Source of the DNA: an uncultured delta proteobacterium
GTDB taxonomy: Bacteria; Desulfobacterota; Desulfobacteria; Desulfobacterales; Desulfosalsimonadaceae
Direction: 5' to 3'
Length of the DNA stretch: 64,000 nucleotides
NCBI GenBank assembly: GCA_963826785.1
Contig: CAWGYD010000006.1
Span: 1,024,001-1,088,000, forward strand
A program made the translations under genes and the position numbers. The notes under the pieces were generated by a model. It did no database searches, had not been told where the DNA came from, and worked only from the letters and a program-made list of their open reading frames with translations. Of this stretch, positions 13,723 to 25,576 are shown one piece after another. How positions within the stretch are numbered: the first letter of the stretch is position 1; each line of letters opens with the position of its first letter.

Positions 13723-14169
13723 ATGAAAACACAGCTGCAACAGCCCTGCAGGGCAAATCATATCATCTTGAAAATCTTTATCTTTCTGGCAGTTGCCGGA
13801 CTTTATCTCTGCCCAAAAACCGATGCCGCCGAAGCGCCCAAGTCCAGCCTGAAGCTGGATAAAGCCGCCATGTGCGAAGGGATTGCCGATTTTGCGCCCG
13901 TCAATCCGGGCATCGCCTTTTCCGTGACCGTGGGCAAGCTCATCTGCTACACCCAGTTTTCAGGCATCGAAGGGGATACCAGCGTGCTGCACAAATGGTA
14001 TCGCCGGGATGAACTGGTGACCACCAAGATATTGATGCTAAAATCCCCCCGCTGGTCCACTTACAGCAGCATCCAGCTGCGGGAATCCGACCGGGGCCCC
14101 TGGCGGGTGGACATCGTGGATGCGGATAACCGGGTGCTCGACGTACTGCGGTTTTCCGTGACGGAATAG
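13723..14169 (+). CDS. Exported DUF2914-like protein
   Basis: Signal/TM; CYT...HKWYR...RWSTYSSI...GPWRVDIVDADNRVL pattern. Confidence 0.75.
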   Translation: MKTQLQQPCRANHIILKIFIFLAVAGLYLCPKTDAAEAPKSSLKLDKAAMCEGIADFAPVNPGIAFSVTVGKLICYTQFSGIEGDTSVLHKWYRRDELVTTKILMLKSPRWSTYSSIQLRESDRGPWRVDIVDADNRVLDVLRFSVTE

Positions 14170-14173
14170 GAAA

Positions 14174-15604
14174 ATGGCATTCGAAACGCTGACCGGCATC
14201 ATCCGCTGGCAGGATGTGGTGGATATCCTGCTCAACAGCTATATCCTGTTTCGCCTTTATGTGCTGTTTCGCGGCACCCGGGCCATCCGGGTGGTCGGGG
14301 GGCTGGCCCTGCTGTGGGTGTTTCAGCGGGTCGCCGCTGAAATGGGGCTGATCGTCACCAGCTGGGTCATGCAGGGCATCATCGCGGTGGCGGCGCTGAT
14401 CATCATCATCGTATTTCGGAATGAAATCAGCAATGTGCTCCAGGCCCGGAACTGGCGGGCCATTCTGTGGGGCTTTCCCCGGAAAACGGCCAACACCCCC
14501 ATGGACATTATCACGGAAAGCGTCCATGAGCTGTCCCGCAGACGGATCGGCGCCCTGATCGTCCTGCCCGGAAAGGAAAACCTGGGTGAGATGGTGACCG
14601 GCGGCATCGAGTGGCAGGGGTTGATTTCAAAAGAGATGCTCCTGTCCATATTCTGGCAGGGCAATCCGGTCCATGACGGCGCCATTCTGGTGGAGGGGCG
14701 CCGAATCGCCCGGGTCGGCACCATCCTTCCTTTGAGCCAGCGAAAAGACCTGCCCCAGCGGTTCGGAACCCGTCACCGGGCGGCCATCGGACTGGCCCAG
14801 GAGACGGACGCCATGGTAATCGCGGTATCCGAGGAAACCGGCGGCGTGACCGTTGCCCGGGGAGACGACATCATCGATATCCGGGACAACCGCATGCTGT
14901 TAAATGAACTCCGGCAGCACCTGGGGATCGAATCCGGCAAAGCAGAAGGCATCCGGCGCGAAACCCTGGAACTGTCCGCGGTGGCCATGTTGTGCGTCAT
15001 CTGCATCACCGCGGTGTGGTTCAGTTTCAGCAAGGGGATGCAGACCCTGACCACCATCGAGGTGCCGGTGGAATTTACGAACCGGAACGTGAATTTAAAT
15101 ATCTTCGATACATCGGCCAGCACGGTCGATCTGTATCTTTCCGGGTCGGGGGCTCTGATCAAAACCCTTCAGCCGGCCCAGCTGAAGGTGGCCATCGATC
15201 TGAGCAAGGCGGCCATCGGAGAAAATACCTTCAATTTAAATGGCCATAACGTGGTGCTTCCCCCCGGCGTGCGGTTGAATCGCATCGAACCCGCATCTCT
15301 GAGGGTGACGCTGGACCAGACGGCAACCAAGAAGATTCCCATTCAGGTCAACTGGACGGGAAAAATCCCCGAAGGGCTGATCCTGGAAAGTGCGGTGATT
15401 TCCCCGTCCCAGATCAAGGTGACGGGCGCCAGTCAGCTTCTCAAAAGAACCGCCACTCTCTACACCGAACCGATCCAGTTGGATAAGCTGACCCAGTCCT
15501 GCCGCATTACCGCCAGGCTGGTCCTGGAATCCGCCTCCCTGCAGGTCAGCGAAGACCGCGTGGAGGTGCGCTGCACCATCGGAAAACGCGCCCCGGTCCC
15601 TTGA
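14174..15604 (+). CDS. cdaA: Diadenylate cyclase CdaA fused to a TM helix and YbbR/CdaR-type domains
   Basis: Three N-terminal TMs; DisA_N motifs PVHDGA and GTRHRAAIG, VSEETG; then TM and VPVEF..., IEPASLRVTLD, ISPSQIKVTG, TEPIQL YbbR-like segments. Confidence 0.88.
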   Translation: MAFETLTGIIRWQDVVDILLNSYILFRLYVLFRGTRAIRVVGGLALLWVFQRVAAEMGLIVTSWVMQGIIAVAALIIIIVFRNEISNVLQARNWRAILWGFPRKTANTPMDIITESVHELSRRRIGALIVLPGKENLGEMVTGGIEWQGLISKEMLLSIFWQGNPVHDGAILVEGRRIARVGTILPLSQRKDLPQRFGTRHRAAIGLAQETDAMVIAVSEETGGVTVARGDDIIDIRDNRMLLNELRQHLGIESGKAEGIRRETLELSAVAMLCVICITAVWFSFSKGMQTLTTIEVPVEFTNRNVNLNIFDTSASTVDLYLSGSGALIKTLQPAQLKVAIDLSKAAIGENTFNLNGHNVVLPPGVRLNRIEPASLRVTLDQTATKKIPIQVNWTGKIPEGLILESAVISPSQIKVTGASQLLKRTATLYTEPIQLDKLTQSCRITARLVLESASLQVSEDRVEVRCTIGKRAPVP

Positions 15605-18653: not shown

Positions 18654-19577
18654 ATGAGAAAAAAAAATGACATCAAACTCTATGACCTGATTGAGACGCA
18701 TGATCCCCAGGAGGTCTGGAAAGAAATCGTCACCATTCTTTCCCTGCTTGAGTCCAACATGATTAAAGAGCGCCTGCAATCCGTGTATGAGGACATCATC
18801 CGGCTCTTCAACGGGGATTATCCCGGATACCGGGCTTCCAATACCAAGTATCATAACCTGGAACACACCATCATGGTTACCCTGGCCACTGCCCGACTCA
18901 TCCACGGGGCCATCAAGGGCGGCCACAAATTCCATGTCGAAAATATCCTTCTGGGCCTTCTTGCCGCCCTTTACCATGATTCGGGTCTGATCCAGACCGA
19001 ATTTGACCGCAAGGGAACCGGGGCGAAATACACCATCGGCCATGAGAAGCGCAGTATCGATTTCATGCGGGAAAACCTGGCCCGCAAGGATTTCTCAGAA
19101 AGACAGACGGAGGATTGTGCACAATTGATCAAGTGCACGAACTTGAACATCGACATTGCCGAAATTATCTTTAGATCAAAAGAGTTGGAAACACTGGGCA
19201 AGATTGTGGGTTCAGCCGATTTGCTGGCCCAGATGGCGGATCGGCACTATCTGGAAAAACTCATTCTCCTGTTCAAGGAGTTTGAGGAAGCTGGAATCCC
19301 GGGCGTTGCGTCCGAAGAAGAACTGCTTGAAAAGACTGAAGGCTTCTATAAAAACGTGGCCCGGAAGCGATTAAACCGGGACCTGGACAACATCGCCGCT
19401 CATATGACGCATCATTTCAAATACCGGTGGGACATCGACCGGGACCTGTACATCGAATCCATCAAGAATAACATCAGCTATCTCAAATCCATGCTGGAAA
19501 ACGGGCAGAAACCCCCGTCTTTTTACCGCCGCTATCTGAACCGGGGCGGATTCTTCAAGTTCATCAAGGAAAAATGA
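18654..19577 (+). CDS. HD-domain metal-dependent phosphohydrolase (PDE-like YHNxxH motif)
   Basis: YHNLEH, ALYHDSG, GHEKRS, SADLLAQMAD. Confidence 0.85.
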   Translation: MRKKNDIKLYDLIETHDPQEVWKEIVTILSLLESNMIKERLQSVYEDIIRLFNGDYPGYRASNTKYHNLEHTIMVTLATARLIHGAIKGGHKFHVENILLGLLAALYHDSGLIQTEFDRKGTGAKYTIGHEKRSIDFMRENLARKDFSERQTEDCAQLIKCTNLNIDIAEIIFRSKELETLGKIVGSADLLAQMADRHYLEKLILLFKEFEEAGIPGVASEEELLEKTEGFYKNVARKRLNRDLDNIAAHMTHHFKYRWDIDRDLYIESIKNNISYLKSMLENGQKPPSFYRRYLNRGGFFKFIKEK

Positions 19578-19706: not shown

Positions 19707-21400
19707 GTGCTGCAGAAGCCCACTACACAAACACCCCCGGCCACACCTGTCTTTCAATGCCTGAAGGCGCTCGCCCGGGAAAAAAATATGACCCGAAAGG
19801 AGTCTGTCACGGACCATCAGGGAGGCTGCCCTTTCCGGCTGCCCTTTCCCGGAATTGCTGATTCGCAGGGGGATTGCAAAACATGAAATCCTGAAATGCC
19901 TTTCCAGTCATTATCATCTGCCGACAGCGGAATATGACGAATCGATTTGCCCGGACCCGGCTATTTTTCGATCCATCGACCTGGAAAAATTAAAGCGGCG
20001 GTTATGGTTTCCGCTTTCGGTCACCGGAGATTCCGCCCATGTGCTTCTATACAATCCACAGGATGGCGCCCTCTGCCAGGAAATTACCGAAACATTAGAG
20101 CCGAAAACAGATCCGGTTTTCGGTGGCGCTTCCATCCGATATCATCCGATTTATTGAAAACCAGCAGGACGTCAATCCCGGTTTTCCGCCATGGGCCAGC
20201 CGGGTCTCCCTTGCCGGGCTTCGGGCCCGGCTTGCCGAAAACCGCACGACGCTGGCTCATTATCGAACTTCGATGGCCAAAGGCAGAACCGGTTTATCCT
20301 TCATCCGGACCGGAATTTCGTTTATTTCCATCGGCCTGGTGCTTTTCAGAATTTTTGGCATCGATTACTTCAACCTACTGGAGGCGGCCCTTGTCCTGGC
20401 CGGACTGGGCATGTCCATTGACGGACTGATCTGGTATTTGCCGGTGCGGGGGGCGGGAAAGCGTCTTTCCGATTACCCGGCGACGGATCCGACCTTCGGA
20501 TCGACGACCCTGGAACTCGGACCCGGGAAAACCGTAGCGGGACTCACCCGCACGCCCCCGATCGCGGGAGCGGAGCAGCTCCGCAGAAACTGGAACATGC
20601 TTTCGCCGGTCATGAAGCGCCGATTCCTGGCCATCGACCGAACCGACCTGGCAGACAACCGCACCTTGCTTGCCTACTACCGCACGGTAATGGCCCGTGC
20701 CCGAACGGGATTGGCGTTCGCCCGCACGGGGATTTCGTATATCGGGTTGGGAATTTTGCTCCTTCGACAATTTTCCGCCGGGCCCTGGAGCATCCTGGAT
20801 GGCATTCTCATTCTTCTGGGCGTTGCCATGAGCATGGAGGGATTTAACTGGTACCTCAGGGGTTTGAACGCCGGGAAGGCCAGCTTGAAAACCATCAAGA
20901 AGGCCACCGGGAGCGTTTCCATATGGGATTTCATGTTCAATCCGTTGCGCAGGGATGCCTGCTCCGACGGCGCCGACGACCTCCCTTCTGCATTCTGCAT
21001 CGACTGCTCCTGGGCGCCGGGGATATGGGGGACCACGGGCCTCGCCCTGGAACGGACCCTGCTTGCCGAAAGGCGCAATCTGAAGGCACAGCTTCGCACG
21101 GTCATGGCGCGGTCCAGAACCGGAATGGCATTTGTTCGGACGGGGGTCAGCATTTTTTCGGTGGGCATAGGGCTCCTGCTGTATTTCGGTACGGCCAATC
21201 CGTTCTGGACCGGTTTTGAGCTGATCCTGGCGGGGATCGGGTTGTTTTTCATTGCCGACGGCTTGTACTGGCATATCCCGGCCGAGAAGATCCGCAATGC
21301 GTTCCCGTATTGTTACGGGGATATGGAAATAATGATTCCGGATTATGCCCGGCCCGCTTCCTCCTGGAAAAAGATCGTGCTGGATAATGAATATATCTGA
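19707..21400 (+). CDS. MshEN/T2SSE_N-like domain fused to three DUF202-type membrane repeats (apparent frameshifts ~19803 and ~20107; start uncertain)
   Basis: ELLIRRGIAKHEILKCLSSHYHLPTAEYD...WFPL...LYNP N-domain; three R-heptad ladders ending RTG, each followed by two hydrophobic helices ending (D/E)GxxW. Confidence 0.75.
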
Positions 21401-22623
21401 CAGGGACATGGGGCGTGAAATGCAAAAGTTTCAATCCCTGATCGATACCGGGCAGCTGAGGGCCGAAGATCTCAGCGACGCCTGTGATGCCGCGGATGGC
21501 CGGAATATCTCGGTTGAGAAAATCCTTCGGTCCGAATACGGCATTGCGCGCCGCAAACTGCTGGAGGCGCTGGCCTCTTATTTTGATTGCGGATGGGTGG
21601 AATACGATGAACGGCTGCCGGTCCCGTTTGAACTGCTGGCCGGTCTGGACCGGGAGCCGCTTTATGCCCAGAAATGGTTTCCGGCCATAAAGGAGGGGAA
21701 TACCGTGATCATTGCCGCTGTGGACCCAAAAGACATCGAAATGATCGCTGCCGTAAAAAAACTGATCCCGGCCCCGCTGCATGAATTCCGGGTGGCGCTT
21801 GATGAAGACGTCTGCGCATTCATCGCCGATTTTTTAAATTCCGCTCCGGACCACCTGATCGGCAATGAGCGGACCGGCCTTGCCTTCTGGCGAAACACCA
21901 TGAGCCGCTGGCGCACGCGCCTGGCTTCCTACCGAACCGACTTCACCATGGCCAAAACCCGATTGAGCCTTCTGCGGGGCGGACTGGGATTGATTATTAT
22001 CGGCGGGACCATTCTGCGCATGCGGCCGGACAATCGCGCGCTATGCTGCTGGATGATGATCGCTGCGGGCCTGGGCGTGGTGATTTACGGGCTGATGGGT
22101 TATTACCGGATCAGAAGATCAGCGCCCGCCCCGCCCCGCCATCAGACCATGGTGGAAGTAACGGGAGCGACGCTTTATTTTTTTGAAAATTTCCAGTTCG
22201 TCGAGAACCGTCCCCGGGTTTCTCCTTCGAAGAAAGACCATGCTGGCCCGCATCGCCGATAACATTTCCAGCAATTGCGTTCGGATCGATTCGTCCTTCG
22301 ACCAGAAGGACCGTTCACGGCTGTCCCACGAGCGGACCTCAATGGCCGCCCAGCGCACCATTTTAAGCGCTTACCGAACCATGTACGCCCGTGCCCGGAT
22401 CGGTCTCGCATTTATTCGGACCGGCGTTGCCTTCGTCAGTATCGGCCTGGGTTTGATCGGGTATTTTGGTTTCAATCTGATGACCGTATTTGACGGACTC
22501 CTGATTTTGGCAGGCCTGGCCATGGTGATTGACGGGGTGGTCTGGTACTGGCCGGTGCGCAAGGAACAGCACGAGGCCTCTCTTTGTGCCATTATGCAGC
22601 CCGATTGCGCCCTGAAGGAATAA
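21387..22623 (+). CDS. Paralogous MshEN/T2SSE_N-like domain fused to two DUF202-type repeats (apparent frameshift ~22235)
   Basis: SLIDTGQL...LLEALASYFDCGWVEYD...WFP...IAAVDP N-domain; two R-heptad ladders with TM pairs; start overlaps upstream stop. Confidence 0.78.
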
Positions 22624-22630
22624 AACAATC

Positions 22631-24079
22631 ATGAAAATCGTCTACAAAATTCATTTCATCAATGCGTGCGCCGTTATCCTGATTGCTCTGATCGGTTTTT
22701 ACGCCTACCGGAATCTGGACCTGGTATCGACTAATCTGCGCTTCATGGAAATAGCGGATGATCTGAACGCCTCTTTTCTCGAAGCACGGCTGGATGAAAA
22801 AAATTATCTCCTGTACAATGACAAGAGCGCCCTCCAGCAGCTTCGAGAACGGCTGGCAAATAGCCTTAAGATGATGGATTCGGTTAAACCCGACATCATT
22901 CGGGCCACCGGCAGTGACAATTTCGAACAGCTCAAGGCGAGCATCGCCGATTATCTCAAGTTGATCAAGATGATCGAGATCCATCCGAGCGTCAATCCGG
23001 CCATGCACAACCAAATTCGTGAGACGGGCCATGTTCTGCGGGAATTTTCAAAACACCTCATCAGCCGGGAGCGAAAGGAAACGCATGAAATCATAGCGGG
23101 TTCCAAAAAGGAGCTTTTCACATCGCTATCCGTGATGCTCCTGTCCGCCATTACCATCGGGTATCTGTTTTTTTTCAATATTTCATCCTCGCTGAACAAG
23201 ATCAAAAAAGCCGCCCGGTTCATCTCCGATGGAAAGTATTACGAAGTGGAAAAAGTTGAAATCCCAAAAGATGAGGTCGGATCGGTTCTGCAGGCCATCA
23301 ATTTCATGTCCCGGGAACTGCAGACCCGGGAGGCGCAGATCATCCAGGCCAAAAAGCTGGCTTCACTGGGCATTCTCACGGCCGGCGTCGCGCATGAACT
23401 GGGCAATCCCCTAAACAACATTTCCATGATCGCCCAGACCTACCTGGAGCATTATGACACGCTGAGCGTAAAGGACCGGTTTGACTTCATGCAGATGATC
23501 GAGGATGAGTCGGACCGGATCAAGGATATCGTGACCAATCTTTTGGACTTTTCCAAACCGAAAAAACAGGATTCCAGACAAATCGATATCGATGAAGTCA
23601 TCCATAGAAGTCTCAAGCTGGTTCAGAACATGATTGATATCAGCAATATCGATGTCCAGACGAACCTCCAGGCGGGGATTCCGCCCCTGATGATAGACGA
23701 GAACCGGATCATAGAGGTCATGGTCAACCTGATCACCAACTCCATGCACGCCACCCCGCCCGGTGGAAAGCTGACCCTTGCGACCCAGTGGAAAGATCAG
23801 GCCGAAATGATGGAAATCCTGGTGACCGATACAGGCAACGGGATACCGGCGGAGATTTTGCCGCACCTGTTCGATCCGTTTTTCAGCACCAAGGGGACCA
23901 GCGGGACCGGACTGGGGCTTTTCGTCAGTTACGGCATCATCAAAAATCATGGTGGAACCATCATTGTCAGCAGCGAAGTCGGCGTCGGCACGACATTTGC
24001 CATAACCCTTCCGGTGGGGCGCACCACCGGACAGGAAGGGCAAGTCAAAAAAACGCGTTCACCGGAAAAAAGGAGTTGA
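22631..24079 (+). CDS. Membrane sensor histidine kinase (periplasmic domain, HAMP, HisKA, HATPase)
   Basis: Two TMs; GVAHELGNPL H-box; NLITNS, DTGNGI, FDPFFSTK, GTGLGL. Confidence 0.93.
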   Translation: MKIVYKIHFINACAVILIALIGFYAYRNLDLVSTNLRFMEIADDLNASFLEARLDEKNYLLYNDKSALQQLRERLANSLKMMDSVKPDIIRATGSDNFEQLKASIADYLKLIKMIEIHPSVNPAMHNQIRETGHVLREFSKHLISRERKETHEIIAGSKKELFTSLSVMLLSAITIGYLFFFNISSSLNKIKKAARFISDGKYYEVEKVEIPKDEVGSVLQAINFMSRELQTREAQIIQAKKLASLGILTAGVAHELGNPLNNISMIAQTYLEHYDTLSVKDRFDFMQMIEDESDRIKDIVTNLLDFSKPKKQDSRQIDIDEVIHRSLKLVQNMIDISNIDVQTNLQAGIPPLMIDENRIIEVMVNLITNSMHATPPGGKLTLATQWKDQAEMMEILVTDTGNGIPAEILPHLFDPFFSTKGTSGTGLGLFVSYGIIKNHGGTIIVSSEVGVGTTFAITLPVGRTTGQEGQVKKTRSPEKRS

Positions 24080-24113: not shown

Positions 24114-24473
24114 ATGAACCGGAAAATAATGGTCATCGATGATGAATATGTGATCGGGAAAATGCTGAGGATCCATTTTGAAAAGGATGGTTTCGTGGTG
24201 GAGAGTTTTCTCAGTGCGGAGCCGGCATTGGCCCGTCTCAAGGAGGAAAAATTCGATCTGGTCATCACCGATCTGAAGATGAAGGGGATCGACGGCATGG
24301 AAGTGCTGCGAACCGTCAGATCGGAACTGCCGGGGACCAAAGTCATCATGATCACCGCCTTTGCGTGCCTGGATGCTGCCGTTGAGGCATTTCGCGGACA
24401 GGTGGACGATTTTTTCCCCAAACCGGTCAAGGTCAAGGATCTCAAGGCCCGGATCGAGCAGCTGCTGGCCTGA
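24114..24473 (+). CDS. Single-domain response regulator
   Basis: VIDDE, ITDLKMKGIDG, MITAF, FPKP. Confidence 0.92.
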   Translation: MNRKIMVIDDEYVIGKMLRIHFEKDGFVVESFLSAEPALARLKEEKFDLVITDLKMKGIDGMEVLRTVRSELPGTKVIMITAFACLDAAVEAFRGQVDDFFPKPVKVKDLKARIEQLLA

Positions 24474-25006: not shown

Positions 25007-25576
25007 TCAGAATGCCCGGGGCTTGCAGATGATTTCCCTGATCTTGAGGTCGAACATGCTGGACTGGTGGGCGGGTTTGATGACCAGCGCCGTGTCCGCC
25101 CCCTTGGCGGTTCCGCCGATGGCGATGATATCGTTTCCGGAAAGCGCCCCCGCGTCTGCGGCCATAATGGTAATCTCCACCGCCACCTTCGTCCCCTGGC
25201 CGAACAGGCGCAAGGTGTCGGCGATCAGCAGAACCGGGTAACTGCCGGTGTATTTTTTGGCGATGGAGCGTTCCACGCCGGAAAGCGCATGGGTGGCCTC
25301 CACCACCTTCACCCCTTCTTCTTCCAGGTCCTTTCGCACGTCCGCCTTCATGGCCCCCTGAAATGGCTCCTTGAACCCGCAATGATAGGTGACGGTGGTG
25401 ATCTTGAACCCCTTGAACACCTCCAGCGCCTTGTAGGCGGTTTCTCCCGAGGCGGAGGCGATCACGACCTCATTGATGCCGATTTCCTTTGCCCGGTCGC
25501 AGGCGAGTTCAAGCGTTTGTTGCGTGTTGATTTTGCCGGGTTCTTCAAAAATGGTGAACAGTTTTTTCATGCTCAT
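25007..25576 (-). CDS. Pyruvate kinase C-terminal alpha/beta-domain-like protein (MTH1675-type)
   Basis: PGKINT, VIASASGETA, VTYHCGF, LRLFGQGTKVAVEI..MAADAG, GGTAKGADTA, EIICKP. Confidence 0.85.
   Translation of the reverse strand: MSMKKLFTIFEEPGKINTQQTLELACDRAKEIGINEVVIASASGETAYKALEVFKGFKITTVTYHCGFKEPFQGAMKADVRKDLEEEGVKVVEATHALSGVERSIAKKYTGSYPVLLIADTLRLFGQGTKVAVEITIMAADAGALSGNDIIAIGGTAKGADTALVIKPAHQSSMFDLKIREIICKPRAF

Follow-up and report, generated by a model that had tools for sequence, protein, structure and literature searches.

A 64,000-nucleotide stretch of the genome of an uncultured delta proteobacterium (GenBank assembly GCA_963826785.1, contig CAWGYD010000006.1, positions 1,024,001 to 1,088,000; hereafter the window) carries two overlapping genes, here called A and B, each of which joins an MshEN-like N-terminal domain to membrane units of the DUF202 family, three in A and two in B, with every unit opening on a ladder of arginines spaced seven residues apart. 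This 3-unit plus 2-unit pair is kept in 116/116 uncut related loci, the ladder arginines are nearly invariant, the first transmembrane helix (TM1) of the units is homologous to that of the polyphosphate channel subunit Vtc1, and the pair is linked to a histidine kinase and a stand-alone receiver. We tentatively propose, at somewhat less than an even chance for the model as a whole, that A and B combine 1:1 into a pseudo-pentameric pore for anions, with a cytoplasmic tube lined by arginines; this pore would be gated by the kinase and receiver and would serve a small multivalent oxyanion. That the five units close one ring is, taken alone, likely.

Gene A (19707..21400, + strand) encodes ~563 amino acids (aa) once two +1 frameshifts are bridged, and its GTG start at 19707 agrees with the start of its closest relative, P0002. 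Its Pfam MshEN (T2SSE_N) match (19951..20106, +; E 4e-6), in which the cyclic di-GMP (c-di-GMP) motif is absent, is followed on the same strand by unit A1 (20198..20449), composed of a six-ring arginine ladder (20201-20314) and a TM1/TM2 hairpin, by unit A2 (20615..20860, ladder 20618-20731) and by unit A3 (21026..21283, ladder 21032-21145), in which the first ring is Thr. Gene B (21387..22623, +; ~411 aa across one +1 frameshift) starts 14 nt inside the end of A, an overlap found in 35/59 related loci, and contains an MshEN match (21609..21833, +; E 3.9e-7) and units B1 (21864..22109, +; ladder 21870-21983) and B2 (22309..22560, +; ladder 22312-22425), each again a ladder with a hairpin. The two MshEN matches fall in the reading frames starting at 19825 and 21345. 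The Pfam DUF202 profile (PF02656) matches three times in the frame 20123-21397 (E 2.9e-17, 63.3 bits, above the gathering score) and weakly in both pieces of gene B (E 8.5e-4 and 0.025), while the B protein of an intact relative reaches 32.8 bits, and a family profile recovers all five window units (E 2.8e-35 to 3.8e-19). At seven-residue spacing, the three pieces contain 10, 4 and 3 runs in which at least five of six residues are basic; shuffled sequences average 0.02, 0.04 and 0.002 such runs, and 0/2000 shuffles reached the observed counts. The initial annotation, a reading of the letters of this DNA, had described two overlapping paralogs with three and two DUF202 units behind MshEN-like domains, five ladders, all of which are present on the + strand, and three single-base indels, each of which is one extra base according to tblastn with intact relatives; its observation of the locus is thus confirmed.

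The membrane part of gene A is 68-72% identical to that of intact relatives. Among 8000 scored candidates, 922 gave hits at E<=0.001, and 116 of the best 120 carry an N-domain and three units, with the other 4 lacking the N-domain. A single-protein scan of genome contigs gave no match, and alignment-based queries were needed; longer relatives of B (714-2035 aa) were absent at E<=0.001 in a weak search.

Arginine is nearly fixed at 29 of the 30 ladder positions, the first ring of A3 being the exception, and Arg or Lys occupies the ring positions in nearly all of the 120-131 copies of each unit; the last ring deviates in 8-9 copies per unit of A2, B1 and B2. Positions g, a, d and e of a heptad form the core of helical barrels. 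The consensus of the ladder is L-A-x-x-R-T-x (L/M 84%, A/S 98%, R 96%, T/N/S 95%), and because its L-A-R-T residues fall on these core positions, Ala and Arg are placed in the lumen, a heptad pattern that fits the lumen position given to the arginine rings in the initial annotation. Together, the five ladders hold ~43 basic and 11 acidic residues. In AlphaFold2 models of an intact A (pLDDT 81.6, pTM 0.74) and of an A membrane part (pLDDT 84.3, pTM 0.81), each unit consists of an unbroken helix of 52-57 residues, comprising both the ladder and TM1, and a second helix, TM2. Since each unit is a two-TM hairpin, A and B together have 10 TM segments. The membrane layout given in the initial annotation, in which two hydrophobic helices follow each ladder, is corrected in that ladder and TM1 form one helix, with 10 TM segments in all instead of the three per unit of VTC.

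A unit profile built from the five units and eight single-unit relatives was searched against the PDB, and its four best matches were all Vtc1 (E 0.0023-0.0046). Ring -7 of the profile aligns to Vtc1 R31, and ring -14 thereby falls on K24. In the available text of the VTC structure reports, the complex is a pentamer (10.1101/2023.01.27.525886), its pore rings are K24 and R31, and M42 is its hydrophobic constriction (10.1101/2023.01.27.525886; PMC9911596). At the counterpart of M42, position +4 as counted on the Vtc1 sequence, each of the five units has predominantly Ser, Ala or Gly. The claimed likeness to the VTC pore helix is thus borne out, with R31 in register. In the structure that we propose, A and B would assemble 1:1 in the inner membrane, where their five DUF202 hairpins would close a VTC-like ring, and the five long helices would run on into the cytoplasm for ~35 residues, forming a helical barrel of five strands. 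Rings of Ala and Arg would alternate along the lumen of this barrel and make it a positive tube above a small-residue pore.

The relatives were collected by three scans of GTDB genomes, queried with A, with B and with a distant A clade, from which the best 80 of 231, 257 and 126 confirmed loci were kept. The resulting 225 loci, reduced to 129 by duplicate removal, comprise 116 uncut loci and 13 cut by contig ends, and span Desulfobacterales, Syntrophobacterales, Desulfovibrionaceae, Desulfobulbaceae and Nitrospirota records. The uncut loci include 109 with exactly A1 A2 A3 B1 B2, 5 with the layout A, A, B and 2 in which one unit is split by a frameshift; the unit order is never permuted, the 13 cut loci hold nothing that contradicts it, and no other unit count occurs in the uncut loci down to ~40-45% identity. 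In an unranked sample of 301 genomes of the class, each of the 7 carriers has exactly five units in the locus, and no chain of four or five units was present in the best 150 of 1450 matches among 1.84 billion representatives. The initial annotation had reasoned that a 1:1 pair supplies exactly five units, and across homologous loci the 3+2 count is indeed kept and the two genes are linked. Pairwise distances of A and B correlate with rho 0.91-0.93, those of A or B with the kinase at 0.64-0.70 and with a dikinase-like neighbour at 0.74-0.79, and those of A or B with kinase, dikinase and TauE span 0.59-0.79 in all; because kin share history, the agreement of the A and B trees is supporting evidence, not proof.

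In five loci (L066, L074, L087, L103, L126), two A paralogs stand in tandem ahead of one B, which suggests exchangeable three-unit subunits. That the proteins form no single ring and instead build another oligomer (e.g., A2B2 or homo-oligomers) or a scaffold, with 3+2 as inherited history, is quite improbable. In favour of this reading, kin share gene order, the loci were ranked by similarity, the tandem loci have two A genes per B and one relative, P0126, has a two-unit A; against it stand the constancy of the count in the uncut loci, the lack of longer chains among the best matches, the signature that each of the five units retains as its own and the pentameric state of VTC.

Downstream of B lie an intact membrane histidine kinase (22631..24079, +; TM-sensor-TM, HAMP, HisKA, HATPase), from a subfamily that travels with A and B, and an intact stand-alone receiver (24114..24473, +; CheY-like REC with no output domain); this dedicated pair was not part of the initial annotation. 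Among the 116 loci with room for it, the kinase directly follows B in 106, while 3 others have it at another place of the locus, and it is present in distant clades as well; the lone receiver comes next after the kinase in related loci. The conserved core thus consists of four genes, namely A, B, kinase and receiver. The sensor half of the kinase is matched at E<=1e-29 in 8/300 other genomes of the class, after which the matches drop to 1e-17, and these 8 are all 6 carriers of A and B plus two genomes with the kinase beside TauE genes. The four-gene module is present in the cultured Solidesulfovibrio alcoholivorans DSM 5433 (L259) and also in L257, L256 and L262, and cable bacteria (Ca. Electronema) are among the carriers. 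An apparent 872-aa B-kinase fusion in L125 (9586-12204) was rejected, as it results from a frameshift inside unit B2.

In the proposed mechanism, the co-encoded kinase would phosphorylate the lone receiver, and the phosphorylated receiver would dock on the MshEN-like domains and gate the pore. The flow of information may also run the opposite way, if the ring were a non-conducting anion sensor or co-receptor in which an anion held in the arginine tube controls the adjacent kinase, as an input rather than an output. The kinase starts only a few bases after the B stop (22623/22631), its subfamily tracks A and B, and the excess of basic over acidic ladder residues could trap an anion rather than pass it. 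However, the kinase brings an extracytoplasmic sensor region of its own and is also found where A and B are absent, the sole B-kinase fusion seen is an artefact, receiver fusions to ladder-DUF202 proteins (described below) point to control of the pore, and the TM lumen positions are small residues; a purely sensory ring is therefore doubtful.

The MshEN fold of the N-domains is apparent from a relative, whose N-domain matches 5htl_B with Z 13.3 (rmsd 3.3, 138 aligned) and 2d28_C with Z 13.1, and a PDB-sequence search likewise returns MshEN/GSPII. The c-di-GMP motif of MshEN, RLGxx(LVI)(LVI)xxG(LVI)(LVI)xxxxLxxxLxxQ in the available text of its description (PMC5013675), is present in 0/57 A and 0/57 B proteins, and the shorter RLGxxL is likewise found in none, a loss to which the initial annotation made no reference. 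In the Desulfovibrionaceae copies, the MshEN-like domains are shortened and the B proteins lack the nucleotide-binding helical subdomain. A channel gated by c-di-GMP through these domains, as the MshEN/GSPII matches in Pfam, PDB-sequence and fold searches might lead one to expect, is thus extremely improbable given the missing motif and the subdomain missing from the Desulfovibrionaceae B proteins, and the MshEN-like domain is probably a docking domain.

As for the cargo, the anions that the pore would conduct or hold are multivalent, and the most likely one is a small oxyanion from the metabolism of sulfate reducers, with sulfite, thiosulfate, sulfate, phosphate or pyrophosphate as candidates. 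The carriers are mostly dissimilatory sulfur bacteria, with dsrA above the cut-off in 45/51, and the genes that flank A and B in many relatives resemble, by annotation, those of a Desulfovibrio cluster tied to the entry of oxyanions (see below). PPK1 was found in 7/50 carriers and 31/301 genomes of the class, i.e., without enrichment, and PPK1, PPK2 (searched there only) and the VTC domain were not found in the source genome, which is 88% complete; no polymerase family is among the recurring neighbours. A and B show only MshEN and DUF202, in line with the initial statement that no polyphosphate polymerase domain is encoded here, whereas polyphosphate as the cargo is weakened by these counts; the initial interpretation as a whole is partly supported. 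A conduit for polyphosphate or another polyanion, fed by an unlinked or unrecognised polymerase, is on this evidence unlikely, despite the homology and ring register with Vtc1, the six rings over ~50 Å and the relatives with up to 20 rings, which suit a polymer, and the pstS/C/B-like genes (labelled by eye) that adjoin the module in 3/80 related loci. In L051, L052 and L054, the kinase and receiver stand in divergent orientation on the upstream side of A and are followed by pstS/C/B-like genes, likewise labelled by eye.

Single-unit ladder-DUF202 relatives have 5-20 unbroken arginine rings in 19 of the 22 measured (examples are L045:1182-2111, L046:7040-7846, L047:6945-7691, L048:6104-6814, P0180, P0190 and P0207), which, if five-fold, would make arginine tubes of up to ~200 Å. 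Four ladder-DUF202 proteins carry a C-terminally fused receiver (L041:7795-8877, L042:8838-9926, L043:8052-9158, L044:7786-8910), and a dikinase-like gene adjoins in 4/4. This gene encodes an ATP-grasp and a phospho-His domain (PPDK_N + phospho-His), and all 12 sequences inspected retain its catalytic His motif. It neighbours A and B in 40/74 loci with long flanks, as TauE does in 25/74; both genes, like TIGR02186 and universal stress proteins (USPs), are frequent neighbours and not core. A very improbable extension is that the arginine-ladder tube and the dikinase-like neighbour make up the bacterial equivalent of VTC where PPK1 is mostly lacking, a machine which, switched by the phosphorelay, would make pyrophosphate or polyphosphate, or phosphorylate an anion, and thread the product through a five-helix tube of 5-20 rings across the family.

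Several observations weigh against the oxyanion pore model. The kinase is missing from the locus in 7/116 cases, and its subfamily occurs without A and B in 2 genomes. In the singleton P0126, units 1 and 2 of A are collapsed at a shared word, either by assembly collapse or by a real deletion. Covariation between A and B in a paired alignment (105 pairs, ~62 effective) gave scattered top pairs and lacked the positive-control signal, and is uninformative either way. Fold searches of the A models (Foldseek, VIA) returned no VTC chain among the rows shown, with designed helical proteins best at Z 9.8, although helical bundles score Z 7-10 by default and the missing VTC row is not taken as evidence against. 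The presence of dsrA and the scarcity of PPK1 are lineage background rather than carrier-specific, TauE and the dikinase-like gene are absent from many loci, including beside A and B in this window, and a small ion does not readily account for the 5-20-ring relatives. The likeness to a Desulfovibrio nitrate cluster, considered below, is one of domain annotation in a published table, not of alignment. Finally, E. coli YidH, a DUF202 protein, showed no D-alanine export in a transport assay, according to the available text (PMC10299036), and with this assay negative, the literature found contains no bacterial DUF202 protein with demonstrated transport.

The copy in this genome is broken near 19805 and 20107 (gene A) and near 22233 (gene B), positions set by comparison with intact relatives, which measure 561-563 and 407 aa. 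When other genes of the assembly were tested against relatives, 5/50 (~64 kb) were broken (source genome C1:148648, C5:112978, C6:822620, C6:843582 and C6:983365), 4/5 of them likewise by one extra base, which suggests a systematic assembly error; yet three breaks in 2.9 kb exceed that rate. Conserved columns are changed at 11/163 positions in A and 11/114 in B, and as many or more changes occur in 5/105 and 1/33 held-out relatives, respectively. The only public sequencing run found is of DNA (share 0.06), and its two 151-base pieces cover no break; no RNA sequencing run is listed for the source genome. The density of breaks and the changes at the upper tail of the held-out relatives leave a minority possibility that this pair has recently become a pseudogene and is not simply an intact operon marred by assembly errors; the uniform +1 breaks, the long frames without internal stops, the branch lengths of A (0.40) and B (0.39), which equal that of the intact kinase (0.37), and the retention of every ladder position argue for the operon. 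The question concerns this copy only and leaves the family-level findings unaffected.

Other features surround the locus. An HD-domain gene lies directly upstream on the same strand (18654-19577) and is not among the recurring neighbours of related loci. Further upstream, at 13723-15604, a DUF2914 gene precedes a CdaA-type diadenylate cyclase fused to YbbR domains, and a stand-alone pyruvate kinase C-terminal (PK_C) domain protein is encoded at 25007-25576 (- strand). No Rfam riboswitch was found in the window or in four related loci, and pattern scans for promoters, terminators and sigma-54 sites stayed at chance level. Elsewhere in the source genome, a separate cluster (L218, C1:556000-564200) contains TauE, TIGR02186, dikinase-like, receiver, USP and kinase genes, and two plain DUF202 genes occur at C6:796833-797015 (L001), a short open frame that may be truncated, and at C1:114892-115098. 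In three related loci, a plain YidH-like DUF202 gene follows a glycosyltransferase-like gene downstream (L058:9225-9632, L065:17212-17610, L094:17166-17618).

No paper on the pairing of MshEN with DUF202 was found, nor was one found by title and abstract among the papers listed on DUF202/YidH or on DUF202 and polyphosphate, supplements lying outside this search; the ESM Atlas holds only automatic 'DUF202/MshEN' clusters, and the literature searched yielded no bacterial DUF202 member with a demonstrated function. In the eukaryotic polyphosphate translocase, DUF202 supplies the pore, and a two-chain version with five units and 29 nearly fixed arginines has its stoichiometry defined by the genes themselves and presents an obvious target for mutagenesis, for which a cultured carrier, S. 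alcoholivorans DSM 5433, is at hand. If receiver-controlled conduction of a sulfur oxyanion or phosphate is true, A and B would represent a channel family not described before, shared by sulfate reducers and cable bacteria, and would serve as a model for the origin of the VTC pore; they may also reveal the target of the kinase-receiver-dikinase modules that are widespread in these bacteria.

Four known systems bear comparison. With the MshEN/GSPII (T2SSE_N) domains of MshE, PilB, PilF and XpsE, the N-domains of A and B share the fold, whereas A and B lack the c-di-GMP motif and the ATPase of MshE-type proteins. With the small bacterial YidH/DUF202 proteins, whose plain single-unit members are found in many genomes of the class, they have an ERTxLAxxRT-type motif in common, and relatives of A and B are annotated YidH by JGI; in contrast to YidH, A and B each contain several units, are extended by ladders, carry fused MshEN-like domains and occur as an obligate pair. 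The nitrate cluster of Desulfovibrio (DVU0251-0245 / Dde_0597-0605) combines, by its annotated domains, TauE, a HAMP kinase, a lone receiver and a dikinase-like gene (PPDK_N + mobile domain), types that flank A and B in many relatives. In the available text of that study, the cluster is needed for nitrate sensitivity, its mutants are nitrate-resistant, and the proposal of the authors is a thiosulfate transporter that leaks, with a role in thiosulfate uptake (PMC4001038). However, the table of the cluster lists no DUF202 pair, and the window has only the kinase and receiver beside A and B.

The closest comparison is with the VTC membrane domain (Vtc1 x3, Vtc3, Vtc4; DUF202, PF02656; PDB 8i6v, 7ytj, 9umg). 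Both have homologous TM1/TM2 helices, five units (for A and B by gene count) and basic rings seven residues apart, two of which are in register with K24 and R31. VTC distributes its units over five chains, whereas A and B use two (3+2); its units have three TM segments, whereas the A and B hairpins lack TM3 in the models; its two basic rings stand against six that reach into the cytoplasm, and its constriction (M42/L716/L640) stands against small residues at the counterpart position. VTC also carries a TTM polymerase and SPX domains, neither of which is seen in A or B (PF09359 was also not found in the source genome), and in place of which A and B have MshEN-like domains and a two-component system. 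The A/B pair belongs to the DUF202 family and probably functions in the manner of the VTC membrane domain, yet it is neither a c-di-GMP receptor nor, for lack of the polymerase, SPX and TM3, a VTC complex.

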